From a virus: 64,000 bases of DNA. The position numbers and the translations under genes are program-made. Where the stretch lies: positions 20,487 to 84,486 of the IMG/VR virus record IMGVR_UViG_3300025000_001646. One strand, written 5' to 3'. This document shows, piece after piece, positions 27,307 to 62,997 of this stretch (position 1 is the stretch's first letter; every line of letters starts with the position of its first letter). A model generated the notes under the pieces. That model ran no database searches and was not told the DNA's origin. It saw only the letters and a list, made by a program, of their open reading frames with translations.

Positions 27307-27373
27307 CGAGAAGTAGTTTAAGGAAAACATTAGCTACAAGCTAATAATCTAGGGTCGATACCTAGCTTCTCGA
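27307..27373 (+). tRNA. Degenerate short tRNA-like gene (loop CT-ACA-AG)
   Basis: Acceptor CGAGAAG/CTTCTCG, D arm GTTT/AAAC, ATTAG/CTAAT, T arm CTAGG-GTCGATA-CCTAG; no encoded CCA. Confidence 0.5.
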
Positions 27374-33341: not shown

Positions 33342-33348
33342 ATAATTA

Positions 33349-34380
33349 ATGAAAATTATAAATAAGTCATACAGACCAAAGGTTTTATTCCATTATTCAA
33401 ATGAGTTTCACTATTGCTGATTTGACGATTTAATGATTGAGTTAAGAAAAGATTTTGAGGTTACTAGTTTTTTTGATAGAAGAGTAAACGAAAATGAATA
33501 TATTTGAATATTAAGATGTGTAAATCCAGATATTATAATTGATGTAGAATGGGACAGGAGAACAATGGAAAGTGAATTTAAAGACAAAATAAGAATACAA
33601 TTGCCACATTGACTAGTATCTAAACATTATATGTATTGAGTGATTTGGAATAATTTTAGATATAATAAAACAATCACTTCTTGACCAGAAATTACTAAAC
33701 AATTTATTGAAAGAGGATTGATTCCAAAAGAAAATTTGCTTGAATTAGGTTACCCGAAAATTGACAGACTACATAATGGATTTTATGACAAAGAAAAAAT
33801 AAAAGAAAATTTATGAATAAAAAATAATCTTAAAACTATTCTATACGCTCCTACATTCAAAGAATTTTCTTCTTTCAATTATTTTATTGAAGAAGATGAG
33901 GAGTATTTTTATAAAAGAATAAATTATTTAGCGAATAATTACAACATTATAATTAAGTTACACGCTTGAACACCAAACGAAAAATTTAAGCCGTATTTAT
34001 TTGGAGAAAATGTTTACTTAATTTTTGATTATGATATTAGACCTTACCAATACTTAGCTGATATATGTATTTCTGATTTGTCTTCCGTAATATTTGAGTT
34101 TGCTTCACAAAACAAGCCAGTAATACTCCTTAGACCTTATGAAGATAACATTATAGACAAAAATTGAATAGAATGGACTATGAAAGACATAGGGACTAAT
34201 TGTAAAAATTTAGAAGATTTAGAGAAGGCAGTTATGGAATATGATAAAAACCCAGAAAAAGACAGTGAAATCAGAGAAAAGTATAACAAACAAATATTTA
34301 AAAACTTATGATTTTCCAGTAAAATTCTAGCAAATAATATTCTAAAATTATATGAATCTAATAGTGCTTTCAGCTGGTAG
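33349..34380 (+). CDS. CDP-glycerol glycerophosphotransferase (TagF/TagB-like) family (TGA=Gly)
   Basis: QLPH(tga), LGYPKID, ILYAPTF, IKLH, ISDLSSVIFEF..QNKPVI. Confidence 0.8.
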
Positions 34381-35002
34381 ATGAAGTAGGCTTAGACCAC
34401 TAACAGACAACAAACCAAAGGTACTATTGAAAATAAACTGAAAGACTATATTAGAAATGCTAAAAGAAAATGTTTGAGCCGAAAAAAATGTTGTAGTGAC
34501 TTGATATCTTTGAGAAAAAATTGAAGAAAATAAGGTTACAAATGATTTATGGTATGAAAATGGTTCGTCTAGTAGTCTTTATTTGGCTAGAAACTACTTA
34601 AAATGAGATACAATGATAGTTTATGGCGATATGATTATAGACAAAGAAGACTTTGAAGAAATGAAAAATCAAGATTGTATATTGGTAGATGACAAAGAAA
34701 AATGAGATGATTATGATGAATATGTAAACAAAGACAGTCTTTGACTTAAATATAGAAGCGAGATTTGAGAATGTGAAAGATTTTTGTGAGCAATACATCT
34801 AAAAGAAGAAACTGCTAAAAAACTTTATAAATATTTTAAACCTTGAATGTTAAATTATAAGATTTGATTAGCCGACTTAATATGAGATTTTTTTGATGCT
34901 AACAATATAGACTTCAAAAAAGTTAAAGCTAAAAATAAATGGTTTGAATTAGACAAAATTCAAGATTATATAAATGCAAAAATATATTTTAATGATTATT
35001 AA
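34352..35002 (+). CDS. NTP transferase, putative phosphonate cytidylyltransferase (TGA=Gly)
   Basis: VLSAGR(tga)SRLRPLTDNKPK, VYGDMI, WFELDKIQDY. Confidence 0.8.
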
Positions 35003-35005
35003 AAA

Positions 35006-35884
35006 ATGAAACTTCCTAAAATAAATTTTCAAGAAAAACTTAACTTAAAATGACAAGTTATAATCACTACATTTGATACTGGATTAAAAGACAATGAAAT
35101 TATAATGATTTCAGAAGAGCCTAGCAAAGAAGAATTAGACAAAATAGTTTTTCAAACAATTACTGACACTATTTATGCTATTGGTGGTGGATCAGCTATT
35201 GATTGAGCTAAATACCTATGCAATAAAGAAGGTAAAAAATTAATAGCAATACCAACAACTTTTTCTGGATCGGCTTCCTCTAGTCACTTAGTATTGAAAG
35301 AAAACTGAAAGAAAAAAGGTTATTCTGGAAATGAATACATACCAGATGAAGTAATAATCATCAACGATTTGCTTTACACTTTACCAGCTAAAACTTTCTT
35401 TTATTCTCTTATAGATTGTTTTGCACATTCGCAAGAGGCTGTTAGAAGCAATAAGAATAATTTTATTATAGAATTAATTTCTGAAAATATTATAGGAACT
35501 TTTGGTAATGTTTTACAAATGAAATTTGAGGACTTTATAAAACTTGATGAAAATAAAATGGAAGAAGAAAAAGCATTATTAGTTAGAGATTTTGGAAAAG
35601 TTTTATTAGTTATTTCTCTTTATGCTAGTTATATATTAAGTGAAGCTGGGACTAATTTACCACATGCAATTTCTTATGCTATTAGCAATTATGGACTTTC
35701 ACATTGAGAAGCTATAGCAATAGTTTATGGACTTAATGACAGAAGAATGAAAGACCTTTGAATAGAATTTGATTTAGAAAAAATGACAGATGAAATTTTA
35801 TTAGATAGACACCATTTAGACAATTTTCCTTGAGAAATTTCTAAGGATTTAATATTTAATACACTTAAAAAACTTTATGAATAG
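35006..35884 (+). CDS. Iron-containing alcohol dehydrogenase, putative phosphonoacetaldehyde reductase (TGA=Gly)
   Basis: AIGGGSAID(tga)AK, AIPTT, DCFAHSQE, PHAISY, SH(tga)EA. Confidence 0.8.
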
Positions 35885-36656
35885 GATTATTGGTTGCCAT
35901 AATGCAATGACGGCTATATTATGAGAAGAGGCTTGATTTGATATGCTTTGGGCTTCTTGATTCGAGATTTGCACTTCTAAATGAATACCAGACAAGGATA
36001 TACTTACTCAAACAGAATTTCTTGATGCTTTTAGAGAAATTAAAAACTCAGTTAAAATACCAGTAATTATAGATGCTGATACTGGTGGGACTTTAGAACA
36101 ACTTAAAAGAATGATTACTTTTTATAATCAAATTTGAATAGATTGAATATGTATAGAAGACAAGAAATTTCCAAAGACTAATAGTTTTATTGAAAAATGA
36201 CAAGAACTTGAAGAAATAGATTTGTTTTGTAAAAAAATAAAGTTATTGAGCAAAGAATTTTCTGGAATGATTTTTGCTAGAATAGAAGCACTTATTGCTG
36301 GAAAATGAGAAGATGAAGCTATAAAAAGAGCTAAGGAATATATAAAAGCTGGTGCTAATGTTATTTTAATTCATTCAAAAAGCGAAACTCCAGATGAAAT
36401 AGTCTCTTTTTGCAGAAGGTATAAGAAGGAATGACTTACTATTCCTATTGCAATTATTCCAACAAAATATACAAGTTTTACTGAAAATTACATAAAAAAA
36501 TACCCTCAAATTAAATATGTTATTTATGCTAATCAATGAATAAGATCTTCAATAAAAGCAATAAAAGAAACTTATAAAAAGATTTTAAAAGATTGAGGCG
36601 TAAATAATTTAAATATTTCTACTCTTGATGACTGTTTTAAAATACAATGATTATAG
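35877..36656 (+). CDS. pepM: Phosphoenolpyruvate phosphomutase (TGA=Gly)
   Basis: WAS(tga)F, IPD, DADTGG, signature EDKKFPKTNS (EDKxxxxxNS), ARIEALI, IHSK. Confidence 0.92.
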
Positions 36657-36952
36657 GCGTTCCATATTCTGGCTGTGATTTTAAAGACGCTATTTATTTT
36701 CCTAGAGAAAATAGTGCTTTAGGTTATGCTATTTGAGCTAGACTAGCTTGAAAGGATGTTACTGTATTTATGCAAAACTCTTGATTATGGCATATATGAG
36801 ATTTATTTTCCTCTTTCTTAATTCCTAGCAAACTTAAATGAATAAAATTTATTATTAACAACAGAAAAGAGCCAGAGCATCACAAGCATTCTTTTGAAAA
36901 TATAAATAATCTCTTAAAAATTTATGGAATTGAAAATGCCGAACTTAACTAG
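36647..36952 (+). CDS. ppd: Phosphonopyruvate decarboxylase alpha part (TGA=Gly)
   Basis: GVPYS, RENSALGYAI(tga)ARLA(tga), FMQNS(tga)L, EPEHH. Confidence 0.8.
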
Positions 36953-37403
36953 AAGCACAGCTATATTGTCTATTGCAAAATTAAAATATGATGAACCATT
37001 AGTTATAGCATCAACTTGATTAAATTCAAAAGCTCTTTATTCTTTAGGTCATCGAGACAGATTTTTATATAATAGATGAGCATATTGAGAAACTTGAATA
37101 ATAGCATTAGGTATTGCCGAGAATACTAATAAAGAAGTAGTAGTAATTGATTGAGACGGTAGTTTTCTGGCTTGATTTGCTAATTACCCGATTATATTAG
37201 AAAGGAAGCCTAAAAATTTGCATTATTATATTTTAAGAAACTGAAAAACACAGACTACTTGATGACAACCTCTTATACAATTTCCTAAATTAGACAAATA
37301 CTTTACTATTTTTGATATAGACGAAGACGACAGAAAGCCTCAAAACATAGAAATTACTATTGAAGAAAATGTAAAATCTTTTATGGAATATTTAAAATCT
37401 TAA
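36936..37403 (+). CDS. ppd: Phosphonopyruvate decarboxylase beta (TPP-binding) part (TGA=Gly)
   Basis: AST(tga)LNS, IALGIA, VVID(tga)DGS, N(tga)..QTT(tga)(tga)QP. Confidence 0.8.
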
Positions 37404-37412
37404 TTTTATTTT

Positions 37413-37850
37413 ATGATTAACGGTGTAAAAATTATTGACGTTAATAGATTCTGGGATGACAGATGATTTTTTGCAGAGGTATGGAGGAAGTCTCAACAAT
37501 GAGAAATGGCTCAAATGTCTTTCACTAAAACTTACCCTTGAGTTGTCAAGGCTTTTCACTACCACGAAAAACAAGATGATTTATGGTTTTGTGTAGAAGG
37601 AAATCTAAGAGTAGTTTTAAAAGACCTTAGAGAAGACTCTCCTACTTTTAATGAAGTGCAAACTATTTATATTGGTGAAAAATCTCAAGCAGTTTATATT
37701 CCTAAAATGGTAGCTCACGGTTATAAAGTTATGGGAGAAAAGCCAGCTAAACTTATTTATTTGACAACACAAGAATATGATGTAAAAAATCCAGACGAGA
37801 AAAGAATACCTTATGACGAATTTTATGATTGGAAAACAGTTTTTAAGTAA
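37413..37850 (+). CDS. rmlC: dTDP-4-dehydrorhamnose 3,5-epimerase (TGA=Gly)
   Basis: DDR(tga)FFAE, VVKAFHYH, DLREDSPTF, IPKMVAHGY. Confidence 0.88.
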
Positions 37851-37858
37851 AAAATCTA

Positions 37859-37887
37859 TTGTTTTTATAAATTACTATTGGTAGAAT
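37859..37887 (+). promoter_or_regulatory. Promoter of suppressor tRNA transcript
   Basis: TTGTTT-17bp-TAGAAT ending 12 nt before the tRNA. Confidence 0.65.
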
Positions 37888-37899
37888 AATTATAGATAT

Positions 37900-37974
37900 G
37901 CGGGGATGAGGTAAAGTCTAGCCTGAATCGCTTCAACCGATTAAGTAGGGGATAGTCTCCCCTTCTCCGCTCCA
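37900..37974 (+). tRNA. Opal-decoding tRNA-Gly, anticodon TCA
   Basis: Acceptor GCGGGGA/TCTCCGC + T73 + CCA (Gly identity G1-C72, C2-G71, G3-C70, U73); D stem AGGT/GCCT; AATCG-CT TCA AC-CGATT; T arm AGGGG-ATAGTCT-CCCCT. Confidence 0.9.
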
Positions 37975-37989
37975 ATAATTTTTATTTTT

Positions 37990-38310
37990 ATGGGATCATC
38001 AAAGCACGGATTAAAGCCAAATCAAATATCAGTAAAAAGAAAAAGCACTAAAGTAAAAGGTGTTTCTCGTTTAAATCATTGGTCTACTATTTCAAAAATG
38101 AATATTGAAGATAAGAAAGTAAATGGTTATGTAACTAATATAACTAATATAAAAGGAAATACATTTTGGTGGTATTCTAAAGGAAGAAAAACTTGTTTAG
38201 ACACAGGACTTAAATGTGATCCAGATGGTTATAATAGATGGAATACTTATGAAAATCACCTAATAAGAAAAAAGAGATTTAAAAATCGTGTCAGAAAAAA
38301 TACTATTTAA
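37990..38310 (+). CDS. Basic hypothetical protein (TGA-free, follows tRNA)
   Basis: 106 aa ORF 15 nt after tRNA CCA. Confidence 0.55.
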   Translation: MGSSKHGLKPNQISVKRKSTKVKGVSRLNHWSTISKMNIEDKKVNGYVTNITNIKGNTFWWYSKGRKTCLDTGLKCDPDGYNRWNTYENHLIRKKRFKNRVRKNTI

Positions 38311-38890: not shown

Positions 38891-39076
38891 ATGCCAATAA
38901 TGCCTTGTGTAAGCGAAAAAAAGAAAGGTTTTAAATATTGAGAAACTTGAAATTGTTATACCTATGAAGAAGGTAATAAAACTAGTGAAGAAAATGCTAG
39001 AGAACAAGCAATCAAGCAATGACAAGCTATTGAGATTAGCAGACTTAAAAAATATAAAATAACCATTAAAAAATAA
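38891..39076 (+). CDS. Small phage protein (TGA=Gly)
   Basis: MPIMPC..KGFKY(tga)ET(tga)NCY...AIKQ(tga)QAI. Confidence 0.6.
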
Positions 39077-39325
39077 ATGAAAAAATTTATAATAATATTA
39101 AAGGATTTATGAATGGGATTATTGATTGCTGGTGTAATTATTTTAGCTTTATTAATTCCTAGCTTTTTGTTAATGATTTCTTGGAATTTAGGATTGGCAA
39201 CTTTATTCACTAGCTTACCTAAAATGAATTTAATACAAGCAATTTTTATTGGAGGATTTTTCCATATTTTGACTTATAAATCAACTATTACAAAAACTGA
39301 AATTAAAGATATATTTAAAAAATAA
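39077..39325 (+). CDS. Membrane protein (1 TGA)
   Basis: Hydrophobic; extends ORF 39113 upstream through TGA. Confidence 0.5.
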
Positions 39326-39627: not shown

Positions 39628-39777
39628 TTTTATATATTTTATGAATACAGACATTGAAAACTGATTCATTCCAGAACAAACAAAAACAGAAACCAATCCA
39701 GATGGTGAGAGAATAGAAGATTATATTGTAAATCAATTGGCCAGAATAGAGCATCTATTAATAACATTATTAGAGCA

Positions 39778-40593
39778 ATGAAAAAAATCTTAGTTTTTGG
39801 TGCTAATGGGATGCTAGGGAAAGACTTGGTAAAAATAGATTGATTTAAAATTTACCCAGACTATAAAACAGACATTACTAATTGATTACAAGTATTTATA
39901 AAGACTTTATTGGTTAGACCAGATTACATAATTAATTGTGCCGCTTATACTGATGTTGATTGAGCCGAGAATGATGACAATGTTTGAAAATGCTGGAGTG
40001 TTAATTCTTGTAGTAAATTGGTCGGTATATGTAAACTTTTTAATACACCTCTTGTAGCATTTTCTACTGATTATGTTTTTAATTGAAAGAAAAAAGAAGG
40101 CTATTCAGAAGACGAAAAACTTCATAATAATAGACCTCTTGAAATATATTGAATGAGTAAATGGATAATGGAATTTAACATATTAAAAAATCTCAAGAAA
40201 TATTATATTATTAGGATTTCATCTCTTTTCGGGAAAAATGGTAAGAATTTCGTAGACTTAATCTTAAATTATGAGAAAGAAATAAACGTGCTTTGAAATA
40301 ATAAAATGAAACCTACTTATACAGTAGATTTAGCAGAGAATGTTAAAAAACTTTTACAACTAGAATATCCTTATTGAACATACCACTTCACAAACGAATG
40401 AGCTTGCTCTTGGTATGAATTTGCTAAAGAAATAAATAAATACAGAACACAACCAATCAAAATAAACAAGGTAGATGAATTTAAAAGACCAGCCGAGAGA
40501 CCTCAATATTCTGAATTGATTAATAATTCACCTTTAAAAATGAGGCACTGGAAAGAATCTCTCAAAGATTATATTTCTAACATTAAAAAGTAA
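39778..40593 (+). CDS. rmlD: dTDP-4-dehydrorhamnose reductase (TGA=Gly)
   Basis: VFGANGMLG, INCAAYTDVD(tga)AE, STDYVFN(tga), Y(tga)MSK, PTY, RPAERPQYS. Confidence 0.9.
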
Positions 40594-41211
40594 ATGACAG
40601 AAGAATTTATTCAGTCTATTAATTGGCACAAAGGCGACCCTATAATAATTAATCCCCTAAAAGATGATCCAGCTATTCCTAATAATCAAGAAGGCTCTTT
40701 TTGTGTTGATTTAGGTTGTGGTAAGAATAAAAGAGAAGGATTTATTGGAGTAGATCAAGCTCCAGACGGAGTAGGCGATATTCAAATCAGACTTGATATA
40801 TTAAACGACAAATTACCTTTCGAAGATAGTTCTGTTGACTGTCTTTTTGCATCACATATAGTCGAACATATAGGCGAAGGCAAAATGATTGCTTTTATGG
40901 ATGAGTGTTATAGGGTATTAAAACCTTATGGACTTTTTGAAATTATAGCTCCAGTTTACAATTCTAGTGATGCTTATAGACACCCAGATCATAAGAGATT
41001 TATTCATCCAGAACTTTGGGGATTTTGGGATCCAGCTAACTGTCAAGAAGACAGAGAATGTTATGGAGTAAAAGCTAAATTCACTCTCGCTATTAATGAA
41101 GAAGAAAGAATATTTGGAGACAGTGAAGAGCCAATGATACTTAGAAAATGTCAGCCTATGAACTTTGTATATAAGAATGGCAATTTTGTTACTCTAGTAG
41201 CTATTAAATAA
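40594..41211 (+). CDS. SAM-dependent methyltransferase (TGA-free)
   Basis: VDLGCG, LPFEDSSVD, SHIVEH, RVLKP. Confidence 0.8.
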   Translation: MTEEFIQSINWHKGDPIIINPLKDDPAIPNNQEGSFCVDLGCGKNKREGFIGVDQAPDGVGDIQIRLDILNDKLPFEDSSVDCLFASHIVEHIGEGKMIAFMDECYRVLKPYGLFEIIAPVYNSSDAYRHPDHKRFIHPELWGFWDPANCQEDRECYGVKAKFTLAINEEERIFGDSEEPMILRKCQPMNFVYKNGNFVTLVAIK

Positions 41212-41223
41212 TTTTACATTAAA

Positions 41224-41757
41224 ATGAAATTTCTAACTCCTAAAAATAAACCAAAAGAAGTAAAAAGAATCAAACCAAATAGCAAGAATTATGTAATGAA
41301 TATTACTGGAGAAATAAGTGAAAATACCTTTGTAGATTGGAGATTTGCAGAAAAAGACAACGATTTAGTTTTCAATATAAATTCTTATGGTGGAGATTTA
41401 ACAACAGCAATGAATATATATGAAAGAATGAGAAAAGAAAAAAGAAAAAAAATATGCAAATCTTTTGGAGGAGTAGAGTCTGCCGCTATAAATATTTTTG
41501 TAGCAGGAGATGAAAGAATAGCAGGAATAAACGATGTTTTTATGATTCATAATGGAAAAGTAAATAACAAGACAATAGATGAATTACAATTTTTTATGGA
41601 TTATGCAAATAGATGTTCTGTAATAATAAGCAAAAGACTTTCTGACATAAGTATTAGACCTTTTGAGTTTTGGATGGACTTATTCACTAATGGAAAGAAT
41701 AACTACTTCACAGGACAGGAGATGTACGATTTAGGTGTAGTTACAGAGCTTATATAG
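41224..41757 (+). CDS. ClpP-like protease
   Basis: INSYGG, ESAA, FMIHN, YFTGQE..DLGVV. Confidence 0.75.
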   Translation: MKFLTPKNKPKEVKRIKPNSKNYVMNITGEISENTFVDWRFAEKDNDLVFNINSYGGDLTTAMNIYERMRKEKRKKICKSFGGVESAAINIFVAGDERIAGINDVFMIHNGKVNNKTIDELQFFMDYANRCSVIISKRLSDISIRPFEFWMDLFTNGKNNYFTGQEMYDLGVVTELI

Positions 41758-42081
41758 ACAAGAATAAAAATTATGACGTAATAAGAAGTTGGTAGTACAA
41801 AGTATTAAAACAGTATTTTTGCATTAATCAAGTTTTTTTTAATAAATATTAACTTTTTTTAATAAAATGAATAAATTTGAAACAATAAGATATAAAATAT
41901 ATTATTGTTTTTTAAAAAAATCAAGAATATGGACTTATTTTAGAGAAGAATTTTTAAATAATTTATTATTTGAATTAGAAAGATTTGACATTGATAAAGA
42001 AAGTATTATTAAAAAATATAAAGATGAATTAATTAAAATAAGAAAAATAAACAAAAATTTATAATATGATTTTTTAATAAA

Positions 42082-42390
42082 ATGACGAAAAAATCATTCA
42101 AAAATCTAATGGAAAAATTCATTGAGATTAAAGAAAATGTAGAAAATGTAAATAAAGCATTGAAAGTATTCGAGCCAGACTTTAATTACCTTTGCTTTAG
42201 TAAATACGAATATATATTTTTAGACGCTCTAAAAGAAGCTATGAATGATGAGTATGACTGGATTGATTATTTCATATACGAATTAAATTTCGGGAAAAAA
42301 GCTAAAAAAGATTCTGTTACAGAAAAAGGCAAGAATATTCCTATTAAGACAATAGACAACCTTTATAATTTAATCACTAAAAATAAATGA
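42082..42390 (+). CDS. Hypothetical protein
   Basis: DWIDYFIYELNFG; ATGA overlap with next gene. Confidence 0.6.
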   Translation: MTKKSFKNLMEKFIEIKENVENVNKALKVFEPDFNYLCFSKYEYIFLDALKEAMNDEYDWIDYFIYELNFGKKAKKDSVTEKGKNIPIKTIDNLYNLITKNK

Positions 42391-43091
42391 AAATAAAATT
42401 TGCTTCTCTGGTAATTCTTTCATTCAATCGTAGAAAGATGATGGAAAGATCACTTAATTCTTTATTCGCTAATACTACATTTCCCTATGAATTAATCGTT
42501 GTAGATGACGGTAGTCACGATGATGATACTGTAGACTACTTAATGAGACTTTATAGACTTGGAAAGATTTCAACTCTTATTCTTAATGGAGGAAAGAATA
42601 TGGGCGTAGGTGTAGGAATAAATAGAGGATTTGATATTGCTCACGGAGACATTGTCTTGAAATTAGATGCCGACCTTGAATATGCTCCTGGTTGGTTAGA
42701 GAAGACAGTTAAGATTATGGAGACATTTCCAGAAATAGGGGTAATGGGATTATTTAAATACTTCCACGAACCAGTAGACCATAGAAAAATGTTTATTAGA
42801 AGAGAAGAAAGAGACGGAGTAGCTGTAGAAGTACATCAAGATTTCGTTGGCAGTGCTATGGTAATTACTAAAGAACTTTACAATAAGAAAGGAAAGTTTG
42901 GAGAATTTAGTGCGGCTTTTGCTGAAGACACTATTTGGAAAATGGCAAGAAAATCAGAAGGCTACTGGTTAGCTCTTCCAGAAGAAGACTTGGTTTATAA
43001 CTTTGGCTTTGGTAGGATTACTTCAATTCTAGTTAATAACGATGGTACTGTTAGGGACATCGCTCAAGAACCTTTAATCTTTAATAAATAA
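42387..43091 (+). CDS. Glycosyltransferase family 2 (TGA-free)
   Basis: VILSFNR, IVVDDGS, NMGVGVGINRG, LDAD, AED. Confidence 0.85.
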   Translation: MKIKFASLVILSFNRRKMMERSLNSLFANTTFPYELIVVDDGSHDDDTVDYLMRLYRLGKISTLILNGGKNMGVGVGINRGFDIAHGDIVLKLDADLEYAPGWLEKTVKIMETFPEIGVMGLFKYFHEPVDHRKMFIRREERDGVAVEVHQDFVGSAMVITKELYNKKGKFGEFSAAFAEDTIWKMARKSEGYWLALPEEDLVYNFGFGRITSILVNNDGTVRDIAQEPLIFNK

Positions 43092-43398
43092 ATTATGTTA
43101 TATTATAATTTCGTTTTAATCGGTTGTGAAAACATAATAGAGATTGATATTTATAACTTTTTAAAAGAAAATAATTTTGAAGTTGTTAAAACAAAATTTG
43201 AAAGTACAATGGAAGAAAATAAACAAAACTATTTTATAGAATTTAAAGGAGAAAATGCTATACGAGAAAATTTCAAAAATTTAAAAACTAACGCAAGATT
43301 TATTATGGATTTTGAAGGTAAGGTAGAGGAAGAAGAAAAAGAAGGATGGATTATTAAAGGTCAAAAAATGTTATTCAGAGAATTAATTAATCAATAAT

Positions 43399-47495: not shown

Positions 47496-48464
47496 ATGTC
47501 ACAACATATTGGAAGAGAACAGTGGATAGGGGTTGGTCTTGAAGATAGTGCTGGTTCTGGTGGAAGTATAGACAAATACATTCCTCTGGTTTCTGGCTCT
47601 TTTATGACAATGACCGATATTCTTCCAGACGAAGCTGCTCGTGGTATTCGCCATAAAGTAGGTTGAGCTGTATTAGCAAGAACTCGTGGAGAAGGTAGTG
47701 TAGAAATGCAATTAGACGTTGAAAACTCTCCTTATTTCTTATACCCAGTAATGGGAAGTATTTCTTCAATTACTAAGGCTGGAGAAACGGCAGTTTATAC
47801 TCACACAATTTCAAGAGAAAATACAGCTACTCCAAAAACTTTGGTAGCAAAAAGAGGTGAAGGTGTAGATGTTAGAGAATACGCTAATATTGTAGTTTCT
47901 TCTGCTAATCTTACAGTTTCAGACTGATTTGTTGGATTGTCTTGTGATTTACTTTCTAAAGCTGGTACATCAGAGACAGGTTCTCCAACTTATACCACCG
48001 AAACTTTACTTTCTCTAAAAGATTGTAGTATTCAATTAGGAACTGATTTAACTGCTGCTGCATTAGCTGCCGCTACTAAGGTAACAGAATTAGAACTTAA
48101 TATAGTAAACAACGCAGAAGCTCACTATATGAGTGGGTCAAGTGATGTAGATACTATTACTTATGGAACTCAAGAAATTACTGGTAGTTTTGTAAAACTT
48201 TTTGAAAGTACAACTGAAAGAGCTGCTTATGAAGCATTGACAAAAAGAGCAATGATCATTACAATTACTGGAGAATCTATTGGTAATTCTTCAACAGAAA
48301 CAATTCAAATAAATATTGCTAAAATGCACCTTTCTGGACATCCAATTGAAATGGGATTAGATGACATTATGGCAGAGACTTCAGAATTTACTTGTGAATA
48401 TGACCCTACAACTGCTAAAGATGTTCAAATAGTAATTACCAATCAAACTTCTTCTTACGCTTAG
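47496..48464 (+). CDS. Major tail tube protein (2 TGA)
   Basis: GREQWIGVGLE, YTHTI, ELNIVNN, IVITNQTSSY; joins ORFs 47706 and 47937. Confidence 0.75.
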
Positions 48465-48483
48465 TATTTAATTTTAAAAATAT

Positions 48484-48771
48484 ATGAAAAAAATAATTCT
48501 TCCAGTATCACAAAAAGAAATTGAATTAGATTATAATTATTGAATGGAATTAGAAATTCAAGATATTTTATTTGAAAATCAAGAAGTTAATGAAAATTGA
48601 AGTTTTAAGGTTCAATGAAAATCTTTAAGTTTATTGTCAAAAAAACTTTTAGAATTAATTCCTCAAAAAATTTCTATGGAAGAAATTAAAAAACTTTGAG
48701 CAGAAGATTGAAGATTTCTAATGGAAGAATGTGCTTCTTATTATAAAGATCTTTCTCAAAAAAAAAATTAG
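48484..48771 (+). CDS. Tail assembly chaperone (TGA=Gly) with -1 frameshift extension to 48941
   Basis: Between tube and tape measure; A10 slippery run 48758-48767 before TAG; -1 frame open to TAA 48939-48941. Confidence 0.7.
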
Positions 48772-48930: not shown

Positions 48931-50547
48931 ATGGCTGATAAAGACCTAACATTAAGAATAAATGCAGAAGATAATGCAACAGAAGTTTTAAATAAAACAA
49001 GAAAATGAGTAGATTGAATTGTTAAAGCTGGAAAAATTTTGGCTGCATCTTGGGCAGCAAAAAAAGTTTTTGAATGAACTATTTGAGTAGCAATGGATTT
49101 TGAAAAACAAATGAAAAATGTGTCTACTATGATGGATTTAACAACAGAGGCTTGAAAAAAAACATTTGATTCAGTAAGAAGTTGATTATTAGATATTGCT
49201 CAAAATGTACCAATATCTATTGATTCTTTAAGTGACTCTCTTTATAATATGGTATCTTCTTGATACCAGTGAAAAGAAGCACTAGAAATGGTTAATACTG
49301 CTGCAAAATTAGCAACAGCTGGAGCAACAGATGCTTGAACAGCAGCTTATGCCTTAACGGCTTTTATAAAAGGTTATTGAGACGCTTCTGTTTCAGCTAA
49401 AGAAGCTGCTGATTTATTATATAATACCAATGTTTATGGTATTACTACTTTTGAAGAATTGGCAGTTAGTATTTCTGGTGCAGTTCCTTCTGCGAATATG
49501 TTATGAGTTAGTCAATTAGAATTAGCAGCTACTACTGCTACTTTAGTAGGAAAAACTGGTAATGCTGCAGAAGTTTCAACTCAATTAATGTGAGCTTTTA
49601 ATGCTATGTTAAAACCAAATAAAGCATTAATATCATTAATTCAAAGTCTATGATATGAAAGTGCAGAAGCAATGATAAAGGCAAATTGATTAAAATGAAC
49701 ATTGGATTTATTAAAAGAATGAGCCAATAAATCTAATGTAGAATTAAAGGACATTACTTCTAATGTTAGGGCTGCAAATTGATTAATACCATTAATGACA
49801 ACACTTTCTTGAGATCTTACTAATAATTTAAACAATATGTGAAACGCTTCTTGAATAGTAGATGAAGCATTTAAAAAGCAAATGGAGGCAAGTAGTAATT
49901 TATGGGATGTAACAAAAAATAGATTAGCTGTTGCTGGAATAGAATTATGAACATTGGTATTGCCTTTATTATCAATGGCGATACAAGCATTAAATTTTAT
50001 TATACAAAATTGAATAAAAATGTTTTCTGAATTTTGGGATACAACAAAAAAAATATGAGAATGGTTATTAAAATCATTTTTATGAATTTGGGAAACTATT
50101 AAAAATGCTGTTTCAGACGCATTTACATATATTTATAATCAGATAAAAGATTCTCCGATAGTTTCTTTTATTCAATGAATAATTGAAAAAGTTCAATGAT
50201 TATTGGAAAAAATATGATTAGCAAAAAAACAATCTCAAGAACTTTGAGAAGTTTGAATTTGAAATTATAGTAGCAAACAAACAAGTATTTCTATGCCAAA
50301 AAAGAGAGCTATTGGTTGACCTGTCTCTTCTGGAAGTCAATATTTAGTAGGAGAAAGATGACCAGAGCTTTTTACTCCTTCTACTTCTGGAATGATTACT
50401 CCAAACAATCAACTTTGAGGCGGTGGAGTAGTAATTAATCTTAACAATCCAGTAGTAAGAGATGAATGAGACATTGACGCTTTCACAAATAAAATTATAA
50501 AAGCTCTTAGATGAGTAAATTTAAACAATAAACTTTCTTCATTCTAG
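48931..50547 (+). CDS. Tape measure protein, TP901-like (many TGA=Gly)
   Basis: DFEKQMKNVST, AAKLATAG, RAIG(tga)PVSSGSQYLVGER(tga)PELFTP. Confidence 0.85.
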
Positions 50548-53105: not shown

Positions 53106-53122
53106 TATAATATATTTAAAAT

Positions 53123-54973
53123 ATGGCAGTTTTAACTAGTGCAGTTGTAGCAGGTCAAACAGCTACGGCGGTACAATATAATAATCTAAGAAATGATGCT
53201 TTAACAGCTGGTCATATTAGTCTTCAGACTATTACTGGAGCAACTAAAACAGTAGTAGCAAACGAATGATACATTTCTCAAAATGATAGTGATAGAATAG
53301 TTTATACTTTACCTACAACAGCTAGTGTTGGAGATGTTTTTATAGTTACTGGAAAAGGTACTGCTGGCTGGAAAATTGCTCAAAATGCTTCTCAAATTAT
53401 TTATTTTTGAAAGGTTTCTACTACTACTTGAGCTAGTTGATACATTCAATCTACTTGAAACAATGATTCAGTTACATTAGTTTGCACTACTACTAATAAT
53501 GGTTGGACTGTAACAAATTCTATTTGAGAAATAACTTTAGATTCTGGTTGAACAAATAATGCTATTGACTGAATTATATGATGAGACGGAAGCGATGGTG
53601 CATTGTCAATCGGTGCTGGAGCAACTACAACTCTTAATACAAATCAAGTTTATAATTATAGTTCTATAGACATAAACGCAACAGGAACACTTGCTTTCAC
53701 AGGTGCTAATGGTGCGGCTCTTATAAACTGTAGTGGAGACGCTACAATCGCAGGAACAATAGAACTTCGCAATCTAGTAACAACTGCTTTCTCTGCCTAT
53801 ACCTCTAACAAGGATAGTCTGATGAGCGGAAGTGCTTATACTGCTGTAACTTATAATGCTGGTGGTGCAGGTGGTACAGCTGGTGGTGTTGCAGGTAATG
53901 GTGGAACAGGTGGAACATCTACTACTGCTTCTGGTACTCCTGGTACTGGTGGTGCAGGAGGAACTTCTGGTAGCAAAAATGGTGGAAATGGAGAAGGTGG
54001 TAATTCTACTACTGGAGGAGGAGGAGGCGGTGGTGGATACGGAGATGGAAATGGAACTGCTGGAGCTACAACTGCCAATACTAATGGAGGTGCTGGAGGT
54101 GCTGCTGATGCAACATCTACTGGTCCTGGTGCTGGAGGAGGCGGTGGTGGAGGTGGATTGACAACTGGAAACGGAGGTGCGGGTGGAGCTGGAGGAGCTA
54201 CTACTAGTGTAAGTGGTGGAGAAAACGGTGGAATAGGTGGTAACGGTGGTGCTTCTGGTGCTAGTGGTGGAAATGGAGGAAATGGTGGACAAGGAGGTGC
54301 TTGCACTAGAACTGTTTCTGGTATAGGAGGTAACGGTGGAGCTGCTTATGCTACTGGTGGTACTGGTGGTGCAGGTGGTGGAGCTAGTGATGATGGACAA
54401 GGTGCAGCAGGAGGAGTAGGAGGTAATTCTTCTCATGGAACTGGTGGTGTTGGCGGAACTGGAGGTAATACCGTTAATGGTAATATTGCTGGTGTTGGTG
54501 GAGCTGGAGGAAATGGAAGAATAGGAGGTGCTGGTGGAACTGGAGGTAACCCTGGTTCTTCTGGAGCTAATGGTGCAGCTGGTGGTGCAGGCGGTAATGG
54601 AACATCTGGATCAACTTGTCTAGCAATGTATGTAAAAGGAGATCTAACCATATCTGCAACTGTAACAGCTAGTGGTGGTAATGGAGGTAAAGGTGGAAAT
54701 GGTGGAAATGGATTTGGTGCTGGAGCTGGTGGGGCTGGAGGTGCTGGCGGAAGTGGTGGAGATGGAGCAGATATAATAATACTATGCAAAGGAACACTTA
54801 CTAATACAGCTACTATAACTAATACAGGTGGTAATGGTGGAACAGGAGGAACAGGAGGTAATGGTGGAGATACTAACTCTACAACTATTGGAAAATCAAA
54901 TGGACAAAATGGAACCAATGGAAGACAAGGTCGTGATGGTCGTAAAATAGTTGCTTCTATTACTAACCTTTAA
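53123..54973 (+). CDS. Glycine-rich tail fiber / receptor-binding protein
   Basis: N-terminal anchor with about 10 TGA, then TGA-free Gly-rich GGxGGxG repeats. Confidence 0.75.
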
Positions 54974-55408: not shown

Positions 55409-55684
55409 ATGAATATAAATGATTTAATACCTTTCTGAACTAAAATACTTGTCAAAGTAATTAATCTTGAAGAAAAAGGCTGATTAAGTTTACCAGAGAC
55501 AGAAGAAAAACCATCTGTCCTTTTTTGAGAAGTATTAAAGGTTGGTAATGGTGTAAAGACTTTTAAGGAAGGTATGGTTGTTTTATTCGACAGGTACAAA
55601 TCAAATTACTGTCCTATTCCTTGAGACTTTAACGAATACAGATTTACAATGCCTAAATATATACTTTCTTACTTTACTAAATAA
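55409..55684 (+). CDS. groES: Co-chaperonin GroES (TGA=Gly)
   Basis: LIPF(tga)TKILVK, KG(tga)LSLP, (tga)EVLKVG.G, VLFDRY; directly upstream of GroEL. Confidence 0.8.
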
Positions 55685-57285
55685 TGGCTAAAATAGTTTA
55701 TTTAAACAACGAATGAAAACAAAAAGTCCTAAAAGGTATATTTACTGTTACTAATGCAGTTAAATGAACTCTTTGACCTAAATGACAAAATGTAATTCTA
55801 GACCAAAAGTTTTCTTACCCTAAAATTACTAACGACGGTGTTACAATAGCCAAAGAAATCGAATTAGAAGACCCTACAGAAGAGATTGGATGTAAGTTAA
55901 TAAAACAGGCAGCAATTAAAACAAACGACGAGGCTGGCGATTGAACGAGTACCTCAACTGTGTTTGCAGAAGCCATTATTACAGAATGATTAAAAGCTAT
56001 TGAGGCTGGTGCTTCTCCTATTTTACTCAAGAATAATATTATAAATATTTCAAATAAGGCAATAGAAATTATAAAGAGAAATGTTGTACCTATAACTAAA
56101 GAAGAAGAAATTATAAATGTAGCCACTATTTCATCTCAAGACGAAAATATTGGTAAAATTATTGCTGAAATTACCGACAAGGTATGAGAAAGCGGTGTAG
56201 TAACAACAGAAGAAATGGCAGAGGTAGGAATTAAAACCGAATTAGTAGAAGGATTAAAAATTGACAATGGTTATTTTTCACTTGATTTTGTTACTGACAG
56301 AAAGAGACTAGAGGCAGTTAGAAAAAATTCTAAGGTCTTTATTACAGATGATACAATTACTAGCGTAGAAGAAATGGCTAGTATTCTTCAAGCTCCTTTC
56401 AAGGCTAATTTTAAAGAGGTTGTTATTATTGCTTCAACAGTAGAAAAAGGGGCATTATATACGGCTCTCAAGAATCATATTGAGGGCAATATTTCTGTTC
56501 TAATTATTAAAGCTCCTTGATATGGAGACAGGAAAATCGAGATGTTAAAAGACATTGCTACTATTACAGGAGGCAAGGTAGTCTCTAAACAATTTGGAAG
56601 AGATTTAAAGAAGGTAACTATGGAAGATTTTGGAGAGGCTGAAACAATCAAGGCATATAAAAATTATTCTGTTATTATAGGCGGTAAAGGTAACAAGGAA
56701 GACCTAGAAAAAAGAAAAGAGGAAATACAATCTCTTATTGAACAAACTACTTCTGACTTTGAGAGGGACAAATACGCTCAACGCCTTTCTCTTCTTAACG
56801 GTGGAGTAGGTATAATCAAGGTAGGTGCTTCCTCTAAGATTGAACTTGATGAAATTAAATATAGAATAGAAGACGCTCTAAACGCCACTAAAGCCGCAAT
56901 AGAAGAAGGTATACTTCCTTGAGGTGGTACTTCTTATTTAAAGATTTTAAACGAATTAGATCAGTATAAGAATGGAGATATTAACAATGATATGGCAGTC
57001 AATATAATCCAGAACGCTCTTAAATACCCTTGTAAAACCATAGCTGAAAATGCTGGGAAAGATGGTGGTTATATTGTAGGAAAGGTTATGGAAAAATATG
57101 AAGATTTTAACTATGGTTATAATGCTAAAACAGATGTATTTGAGGACTTAATGGAGAGTGGAGTAATAGACCCTTTTAAAGTAATTAGATTAGCATTACA
57201 GAATGCCACTAGCGTAGCATCTATTTTCTTAACCACGAATACAATCGTAACAGATATAACAGATGTTGAAAAAGACAAATCATAA
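55684..57285 (+). CDS. groEL: Chaperonin GroEL (TGA=Gly)
   Basis: TL(tga)PK(tga)[18 protein letters not shown](tga)TSTS, KAP(tga)[14 protein letters not shown]. Confidence 0.93.
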
Positions 57286-61527: not shown

Positions 61528-62997
61528 ATGCTAACAGATTTAGATTTACGAAAATGAGGTAACGATCTTTTTTGGTTCGCCGAAAATGTTTTTTCTAAGT
61601 CTTTCGATTATGAATTTAGGTCTTGACAACATATAAAGAATACTTGTGACTTATTGCAATATGAATTAAAGACTTGTAGAGTATCAGCCCGTGAGCATTT
61701 TAAATCTAGTTCATTATACCTTTTTTTGTTATATATACTGATGTATGTAACACCTTTGAAAGATTTAAAGGTTGGTTATTTTTCGTATACAAGCAAATTT
61801 TCTGGTAAACATATAAAAGAATTTAAAAAGATTGTCCAGAATAATCCTTATTTCAAAGATGTTATTGATTTAAAACAAAAAGCTGAAAGTCTGGCTGAAT
61901 ATACTTGGGACAATAAGCATACTTTAGAAATTTCTCCTTTTGGTATGCTTGAATTTACTCGTGGTCTACATCTTGACATTATATTGATTGATGACCCTTT
62001 CCAAGACCCAGAAAACTCTCTTAATCTTAGTAAGATTGAAAAGATTAACGAAATATTTAAGACTAATATTTTGCAAATGGGAAAAGGACAAAACACTAGA
62101 ATACATATAGTCGGCACGGCTCTTTCTCCTAAGGATTTTTATTTTGATGATGATTTAATGCACGAATTTAAAAGAGAAATATGGCCTGCAATTAAGAATT
62201 ATGAAAGAAAAGAAATTTTATGGCCAGAATATTGGACTTTCAAAGCATTAATGGGAAAGAAAAAAAGTGTTGGAGACAATACCTTCAACCAAGAATTTTG
62301 CTGCGTTCCTAAGTCAGTAGACGAAGGTTTTTTTAAGAAGGAAGAAATAGATGCAGTTTCTAAAAAAGAACTTATTAATCACGATATAAATGTTTTAAGA
62401 GACACCAAAGCTGATATAATAGCTTGATTTGATATTGGTAAAAAAGCACATGTGTCTTCTCTTAGTATTTTTGAAGTCAATCATTCACAAAAAAAAGTTA
62501 AGCAAATTCATCAAATTTTTATGGAGAAATGGAATTATTCAAATTGATCTGAATTTATTCCTCAAAAACCTACTCAAATTGAATATTTAAAAAAGGCAAT
62601 ACAAAATTTTAAAATTGATAGTTTATTTTATGACAATACTAGAGGAGAATTTGAAATTTATGCAGAACAACATATGCTCCCAAGAGAAATGAAGCCAGTA
62701 GTTTTTAGTAGTAAAGAAAAAAATAAAATGGCTACACAATTCGCTACACTAGTCTATAATAGAAAAATAGAATTGATTGAAGATGAAGATTTAAAGAAGT
62801 CTTTATTGATGGTTATGGGTGATTTAAATTCAGTTTCTTTTGGTTGATTTCATGGAGATGCTTTTTGGTCTATATGTTTAGCCCTGAAAGACTTGTCTGT
62901 ACAGTCTCTTATGAGCGATAATATAAATATATACATGAATGAAATTGATGGTGGTTGAAAATGAATTATAGACAGTTGACTTCCAAAAGGCTGGTAA
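61528..62997 (+). CDS. terL: Terminase large subunit (TGA=Gly)
   Basis: SAREHFKS Walker A variant, RGLHLDIILIDDP, VGT, FNQEF, A(tga)FDIG, HGDAFWS. Confidence 0.88.

Follow-up and report, generated by a model that had tools for sequence, protein, structure and literature searches.

The 64,000-nt stretch of phage DNA analysed here (the window; bases 20487–84486 of the 84,486-bp IMG/VR virus record IMGVR_UViG_3300025000_001646) contains, on the + strand at 37900–37974, the 75-nt gene of a credible and probably functional tRNA-Gly(UCA). The tRNA is a rare double variant of the elbow, the parts of which have natural precedents, and it is apparently the only visible means of reading about half of the phage genes, in which TGA is used for glycine; phage tRNA-Gly(UCA) itself is already known. 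The interpretation preferred here, which is given roughly an even chance, is that it would be a working phage tRNA that inserts Gly at UGA and acts as a switch in a host that stops at UGA.

The gene, which is called by ARAGORN, forms a cloverleaf with stems of 7, 4, 5 and 5 bp, in which the anticodon and T loops have 7 nt each. The 5′ strand of the acceptor stem, GCGGGGA (37900–37906), pairs with TCTCCGC (37964–37970) through six Watson–Crick pairs and G5-U68, and the acceptor end presents G1-C72, C2-G71, G3-C70 and the discriminator U73 (T at 37971), followed by an encoded CCA (37972–37974). The D stem has 4 bp, one of them U-G, whereas the anticodon and T stems each consist of five Watson–Crick pairs; all 21 stem pairs are intact, two being G-U. 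The anticodon TCA (37933–37935) lies in the loop CTTCAAC (37931–37937; C32 U33 U34 C35 A36 A37 C38), the variable region AAGT has 4 nt, and the conserved U8, A14, U33, purine 37 (A37) and R57 are retained. The D loop, AAAGTCTA (37913–37920; AAAGUCUA as RNA in the structure drawn by ARAGORN), has 8 nt with a single G (A14 A15 A16 G18 U19 C20 U20a A21), and the T loop is ATAGTCT (37952–37958; A54 U55 A56 G57 U58 C59 U60) in place of TTCRANN. The canonical set of G18-G19 with U54-U55-C56...A58 is absent. A sequence-only reading of the window had claimed a cloverleaf with a Gly-type acceptor end, a TCA anticodon and CCA but with neither GG in the D loop nor TTC in the T loop, and both parts of this description are borne out by ARAGORN and by inspection of the sequence.

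ARAGORN called no tRNA in any of 100 dinucleotide-shuffled copies of the 64-kb window, so the structure is not a chance set of hairpins, and a 72-nt IUPAC pattern of the tRNA features had no match in 100 shuffles. The minimum free energy of the fold is unexceptional (−25.6 kcal/mol; z = −1.75; 12 of 200 shuffles equally stable). Rfam RF00005 gave no match to the tRNA, either at the gathering score (29 bits) or, in a 501-nt slice, at E ≤ 10; the expectation that standard finders may miss the gene therefore stands for Rfam and falls for ARAGORN, which calls it and prints “SeC”, a label determined by the anticodon alone. The lack of an Rfam score, the loss of both universally conserved loop motifs, the fold z-score of only −1.75 and the absence of homologues in the searched data are features that a decaying or non-functional tRNA-like relic would also show, its loops having drifted while a host tRNA or some other factor reads UGA. 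Such a relic is nevertheless quite improbable, because no stem pair is broken and only two are G-U, because U8, A14, U33, A37, R57, U73 and CCA are retained, because a promoter-like site lies directly upstream, and because the loop changes fall on exact partner positions (19/56 and 54/58) and match variants in other phage-contig tRNAs.

The elbow was numbered without nucleotide 17 and, in the 4-nt variable region, without nucleotide 47, which is the most self-consistent choice, yet still a choice. On this numbering the partners are U8/A14, A15/U48, G18/U55, which is kept, U19/A56, which replaces G19-C56, and A54/U58, which replaces U54-A58; the numbering and partner nucleotides proposed earlier hold, given these two absences. 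For comparison, 81 distinct ARAGORN tRNAs were taken from the window and from all fetched phage and metagenome contigs. The D-loop GG is present in 74 of them, together with C56 in 73, and positions 54/58 are T/A in 77 and A/T in three, including the window tRNA. A56 occurs in only two, the window tRNA and a tRNA-Cys on phage contig L193, and in each of these the D loop contains GU and lacks GG (hypergeometric p = 21/3240 = 0.0065, from the counts in the 81 tRNAs). A54/U58 recurs in a tRNA-Lys (L184) and a tRNA-Trp (L196) on phage contigs. Each elbow change thus recurs as a natural variant in tRNAs from phage contigs; this recurrence favours a paired 19/56 and gives the compensated elbow proposed earlier some support from outside the window. 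The combination of U19/A56 with A54/U58 is unique to the window tRNA among the 81 compared. No evidence emerged on two further suggestions of the sequence-only reading, evasion of host tRNA nucleases or modification enzymes by the altered elbow and a relation of such phage tRNAs to how code 25 arose.

The tRNA-Cys(GCA) of L193 (9627–9702, − strand) has the T loop TTAAATC (A56) and the D loop GAGTCGAATCA (GU, no GG), and is an independent case of the U19-A56 variant. In the ViennaRNA fold of the window tRNA, A54 pairs with U60 and lengthens the T stem. The pentamer AGTCT is common to its D loop (37915–37919) and T loop (37954–37958), with a chance probability of about 0.012 for loops of 8 and 7 nt, and the two AGUCU copies could pair antiparallel at four of five positions. 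Non-canonical elbows were seen on two further contigs. L196 (G407), a fully TGA-recoded phage contig, has several of them in a tRNA array: its Tyr and Leu tRNAs lack the D-loop GG, their T loops being TGCAACT and TGCAAGT, its Trp tRNA has A54/T58, and the D arm of its tRNA(UCA) is odd and long. G410, an 84.6-kb standard-coded TerL relative, encodes at 48463–48536 (L364–L368) a “tRNA-Val(aac)” whose D loop reads AACTGTTA and whose T loop reads TACAACT, and in which C replaces U33.

The meaning of TGA can be read from the genes that the tRNA would serve. The open reading frame (ORF) content of the + strand doubles when TGA is read through. Among the 100 ORF-genes of the 84-kb genome, 48 contain at least two in-frame TGA codons, seven contain one and 45 contain none. 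The 48 recoded genes hold 443 in-frame TGA codons, or 38% of their Gly codons, and the 45 TGA-free genes hold 404 GGN and zero TGA sense codons in 7194 codons. In the gene for GroEL (55684–57285, + strand; nine in-frame TGA), seven of the nine align with Gly and none with Trp or Cys in two solved GroELs, and pooling 19 homologues gives 71% Gly in the TGA columns, with Trp and Cys at 0% each, compared with 85% Gly in GGN columns. In the gene for the large terminase, TerL (61528–62997, + strand; eight in-frame TGA), the TGA columns are 42% Gly, compared with 43% for GGN columns, and two TGA (G33 and G300) coincide with columns in which all 24 homologues have Gly. The densest client is a tape-measure-like gene (48931–50547, + strand) with 35 in-frame TGA in 538 codons.

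Over the TGA columns of GroEL and TerL, Cys reaches 0–0.5% and Trp 0–1.6%, compared with 42–71% for Gly, and it is extremely unlikely that a functional tRNA inserts Cys, Trp (as in code-4 phages) or selenocysteine (Sec) at UGA. The SeC label printed by ARAGORN would favour the last of these, and U73, C35 and A36 are features of tRNA-Cys too; however, the first three acceptor pairs are those of the glycine set and not those of tRNA-Cys. tRNA-Sec has an extended acceptor/T helix (8+5 in bacteria), a long variable arm and about 90 nt or more, and it was excluded for the window tRNA, which has 75 nt, 7+5 bp and a 4-nt variable region.

The recoded genes include those for the tape measure, GroEL, terminase, portal, adaptor, and sugar and phosphonate enzymes, whereas the TGA-free genes include those for a DnaB-like helicase, methyltransferases and a phosphoesterase; a ClpP-like protease and a GT2 transferase belong to this class as well. 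The structural and lysis genes use TGA in frame and the replication genes avoid it, the distribution in the model of Borges et al. The TGA-free genes occupy three separate blocks. TGA is the stop codon of five of the 55 ORFs read in code 11 there, and in four of the five it overlaps the following start codon as ATGA. The largest block (8110–32288, + strand), with the DnaB-like helicase, methyltransferase, phosphoesterase and other genes, accounts for four of these ORFs, three in ATGA overlaps. Usage of non-Gly codons is nearly the same in recoded and TGA-free genes (r = 0.976; GC content at third codon positions 0.19 vs 0.20), so neither class appears to be a recent import. The share of GGA among GGN codons is 63% in TGA-free genes and 39% in recoded genes; from this drop, TGA seems to replace GGA, through a change of one base, wherever a sense TGA can be borne, and to be removed from the other genes. 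The alignments of GroEL and TerL and the counts over the 100 ORF-genes support the sequence-only reading in two further respects: TGA does mean Gly in this genome, and its genes fall into a TGA-free and a TGA-as-Gly class.

Two + strand regions show the distribution of TGA at a finer scale. At 40594–43397, TGA is missing from the genes for a methyltransferase, the ClpP-like protease and a GT2 glycosyltransferase, which shows that the TGA-free class extends beyond replication genes, and the adjoining epimerase gene (39628–40593) has 11 TGA. At 53120–54973 a gene of 617 codons, rich in glycine and holding 177 GGN, has all 10 of its TGA within the first 154 codons; its repeat part therefore uses GGN only.

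ARAGORN finds two tRNAs in the whole 84,486-bp genome, with anticodons UCA and ACA, and the tRNA(UCA) is the only candidate UGA reader among them, in agreement with the role first proposed for it. The other (27307–27373, + strand; 67 nt) has the anticodon ACA (A34, Cys box), obtains 49 bits from Rfam and lies within a TGA-free block; its discriminator is A, its first pair C1-G72, its T loop has G54, and nucleotide 26 is absent. If A34 were deaminated, this tRNA could also touch UGA. No gene with an RF-1 domain, a class-II core or the alpha subunit of glycyl-tRNA synthetase (GlyRS) was found in the phage genome. With no second visible UGA reader and no phage GlyRS, the tRNA must be charged by a host enzyme. 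U73, G1-C72, C2-G71 and G3-C70, all present in the window tRNA, make up the identity set of bacterial GlyRS. GlyRS also reads C35 and C36. Of these the window tRNA has C35, and position 36 is A, as the reading of UGA demands.

In the mechanism proposed, the tRNA would be transcribed from its own promoter within the late region and would be charged by the host GlyRS through U73, G1-C72, C2-G71, G3-C70 and C35. Its L-shape would be held by U19-A56 in place of G19-C56 and by the retained G18-U55, and A54/U58 would take the place of U54-A58 with a geometry beyond what sequence can tell. Once the tRNA had accumulated, ribosomes would read TGA in the head, tail, lysis, glycan, phosphonate and GroEL genes, whereas the 45 TGA-free genes (replication and others), some of which use TGA as a stop, could be translated before that point. 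Because the TGA-free genes would be translatable earlier and some end at TGA, a UGA-stopping host, with the tRNA as switch, is preferred. The recoded share of the phage genes, 48–55%, points in the same direction: in the available text of Borges et al. (10.1101/2021.08.26.457843), phages whose hosts use the standard code have 26–71%, a range that includes this share, and code-25 phages have approximately 90%.

Several points weigh against the preferred interpretation. Suppression would have to be nearly complete for the gene with 35 TGA, of which only about 2.5% of chains would finish at 90% suppression per codon, and no function that blocks release factor 2 (RF2) was recognised in the phage. 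The C36 that GlyRS reads is replaced by A36. The Rfam result stands on the same side, as does the fact that no homologue was found in the searched collections from which within-family covariation could be drawn; no RNA run is among the sequencing runs listed as containing the stretch. A54/U58 would not automatically be equivalent to the U54/A58 pair, which is described as having a trans Watson–Crick/Hoogsteen geometry in the available text of PMC7566577. The two pairs are not known to be isosteric. Finally, the best named relatives of the phage GroEL, at 45–49% identity, come from candidate phyla radiation bacteria (CPR; Peregrinibacteria, “Gracilibacteria” and others), and CPR bacteria include code-25 lineages.

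The last point bears on a different view, according to which a functional tRNA supplements a code-25 host (Absconditabacterales/BD1-5, GTDB class JAEDAM01), where UGA would mean Gly even without the phage. This view is a serious possibility, although it falls short of an even chance. The phage copy would raise the supply for late genes in which TGA accounts for 38% of glycines, and the TGA-free genes would reflect a standard-code phage ancestry or a second, standard-code host. It is consistent with the closeness of the phage GroEL to CPR GroELs and with the groundwater source, and a high TGA density would be easily borne in a cell without RF2. The patescibacterial phage RSA-ATP1, with UGA in 60% of its ORFs and its own tRNA-Gly(TCA), is assigned to an Absconditicoccaceae host in the part of the source available, a further point against the switch, and code-25 phages are presumed to infect code-25 hosts in the corresponding part of Borges et al. 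(10.1101/2021.08.26.457843). The TerL relatives that were found all look standard-coded; the phage lineage may therefore have passed to a host with code 25. However, supplementation does not readily explain why 7194 codons of 45 genes are free of TGA when codon usage is otherwise equal, nor why these genes lie in three separate blocks; the five ORFs that end at TGA, four in ATGA overlaps, would gain 1–38 codons in a code-25 cell, and the recoded share is far from the approximately 90% of code-25 phages given in the same text (10.1101/2021.08.26.457843). The reading of the tRNA as a switch can also be stated in a stronger form, in which the host uses the standard code and is probably a groundwater CPR bacterium, UGA becomes Gly late through this one tRNA, and the elbow is selected, fully functional and distinct from host tRNAs; all of this together is considered less likely than not.

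Searches for relatives of the tRNA found none. A blastn search against GenBank phages gave chance matches only (E ≥ 4). In IMG/VR, an exact 25-mer of the tRNA and a pattern with the loops fixed and the stems free had no matches, and the 72-nt IUPAC pattern had none in JGI metagenome contigs. A relaxed pattern (Gly acceptor, UCA and A54..U58) matched 36 stretches in IMG/VR, none of them a tRNA to ARAGORN at its default threshold, and a similar relaxed pattern matched at least 118 stretches in metagenome contigs, with six ARAGORN tRNAs among the matches listed and none with the anticodon tca. A canonical Gly-UCA pattern was found in none of 401 Patescibacteria genomes. In an alignment of six canonical phage tRNA(UCA), the D arms of two aligned poorly; a covariance model of canonical tRNAs would fail on the window tRNA for the same reason that Rfam misses it.

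The TerL sequence alone retrieved no relatives from IMG/VR and no match in GenBank phages, whereas an alignment search retrieved 80 loci at 33–42% identity, all seemingly standard-coded. There was no tRNA(tca) in the fetched flanks of these 80 loci, nor in the full TerL relatives G410, G411 and G413. In a search of 5.8 billion proteins, the best TerL outside the phage's own cluster was 43% identical; the search spanned lengths of 268–856 aa, and code-11 fragments of recoded relatives could escape it. The GroEL sequence alone found nothing among genome contigs; an alignment search gave at least 600 matches, from which the 80 loci are an arbitrary sample with no bearing on the host. Among 151 genomes searched for GroEL, 135 gave a match and none had multiple TGA, and G082, with a single TGA, had no match to the relaxed tRNA pattern. 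In the literature searched, neither a tRNA with both A54/U58 and U19/A56 nor a TGA-to-Gly phage on a standard-code host was found, the supplementary tables of the Borges, Liu and RSA-ATP1 reports aside; Hanke et al. (2014) make no mention of the window tRNA.

The ends of the record share a 127-bp direct repeat, which indicates a complete or circularly assembled phage genome. The sequence originates from groundwater metagenomes, in one of which its word depth is approximately 179x. The contigs of four sequencing runs show no variant at the tRNA, three runs of low share contributing only short identical pieces, none of which spans it. Numerous short matches at 39045–39093 were discarded as meaningless because the stretch is A-rich.

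The tRNA gene occupies a 139-nt gap between ORFs, from the preceding stop codon (37848–37850) to the following ATG (37990). Upstream, a gene for a dTDP-4-dehydrorhamnose 3,5-epimerase-like protein (37413–37850, + strand; three in-frame TGA) is the final gene of the recoded block 33346–37850. Downstream, an ORF of 106 aa without a family (37990–38310, + strand) opens a series of small ORFs that extends to 39627, of which four are TGA-free and one (39077–39325) has one TGA. A promoter-like TTG-N17-TGnTAGAAT motif of the extended −10 type (37859–37887, + strand) ends 12 nt 5′ of the tRNA. It is the sole + strand match in the window, which has three matches on both strands compared with 0.6 expected, and three of 100 shuffles also attain three. 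A scan for the sigma-70 consensus flagged no site directly upstream of the tRNA. The suggestion that the gene has its own promoter is accordingly plausible at most, being favoured by the extended −10 motif and disfavoured by the sigma-70 scan.

If the tRNA is functional, an elongator tRNA without both hallmark elbow motifs carries the translation of about 443 codons, and it tests how far the ribosome, RNase P, EF-Tu and GlyRS need the G19-C56/U54-A58 elbow. Covariance-model tRNA finders can miss the sole gene that explains a phage's code, which has a bearing on the detection of suppressor tRNAs in 35–40% of recoded phages, as given in the available text of Borges et al. (10.1101/2021.08.26.457843). 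If the host is standard-coded, Gly would be the third amino acid, besides Gln and Trp, that phages assign against the code of their host.

A tRNA-Gly(UCA) was reportedly described by Campbell et al. in 2013 in code-25 bacteria (Absconditabacteria/SR1, BD1-5). By description, these tRNAs share with the window tRNA the UCA anticodon on a glycine-type acceptor end and the reading of UGA as Gly; in contrast, their genes are cellular and belong to genomes without RF2 that use the code throughout, whereas the window tRNA belongs to a phage with two gene classes. Code-25 bacteria correspond to class JAEDAM01 (gTranslate preprint), and both code-25 phages and code-11-compatible phages of code-25 hosts have already been described. 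Among phages, tRNA-Gly(TCA) has been in print since 2024–25 with RSA-ATP1, a patescibacterial phage with a tRNA-Gly-sup(TCA) and internal UGA in approximately 60% of its ORFs (10.1101/2024.03.08.584096, PMC13059738). Its tRNA, as far as the available text goes, resembles the window tRNA in being phage-encoded, in its TCA anticodon, in being taken to read UGA as Gly and in its CPR connection; the differences are that a code-25 host is assigned, that the tRNA is treated as a supplement and that an unusual elbow is not reported in that text. The likeness is one of description, as the tRNA and TerL queries matched nothing in GenBank phages.

The phage suppressor tRNAs in the available text of Borges et al. 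(10.1101/2021.08.26.457843) reassign TAG to Gln and TGA to Trp. As in the window phage, they are phage-borne, sense use of the stop codon is found in structural and lysis genes while replication genes remain standard, and a phage synthetase is mostly absent. The window phage assigns Gly, whereas only Gln and Trp are given in that text where phage and host codes differ; undetected non-canonical suppressor tRNAs would, according to the same text, not surprise its authors. The elbow has its nearest counterpart in the A54/A58 T loops, with altered pair geometry, of functional eukaryotic initiator tRNA and tRNA-Ala(AGC), described in the available text of PMC7566577. Like the window tRNA these are natural tRNAs in which A replaces U54, but 58 stays A and 19/56 is unchanged, whereas the window tRNA has U58; according to that text, A54/A58 pairs have not been observed in the tRNAs of bacteria or archaea.

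Canonical phage tRNAs of this type were found in IMG/VR, where a pattern of Gly-type acceptor, UCA and canonical T loop matched 41 stretches, six of them tRNA(tca) to ARAGORN (L172, L178, L184, L193, L196 and L198), with GCG...CGCU acceptor ends. The six have the anticodon and acceptor identity of the window tRNA, three have the loop CUUCAAC, four are on TGA-recoded contigs, and Rfam identifies three, at 35–58 bits. Unlike the window tRNA, all have a UUCRA T loop, which was imposed by the search design, and they show no specific likeness to it beyond common tRNA features. A different contig, G408 (L244/L245, 25,344 bp), has nearly all six frames open for hundreds of codons with TAA and TAG as the only stops; TAA and TAG must therefore be very rare in it, and its code may be something else again. 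G405 (L239/L240; IMG/VR, 21,485 bp, GC 0.29) is a second, unrelated two-code phage fragment with the same layout as the window phage: its TerL has 10 TGA, its adaptor 12 and its collagen-like fibre 24 in 220 codons, its genes for an HNH endonuclease, an exonuclease and the small terminase are TGA-free, and between the TGA-rich and the TGA-free genes sits a canonical tRNA(UCA) whose acceptor end is of the Gly type.

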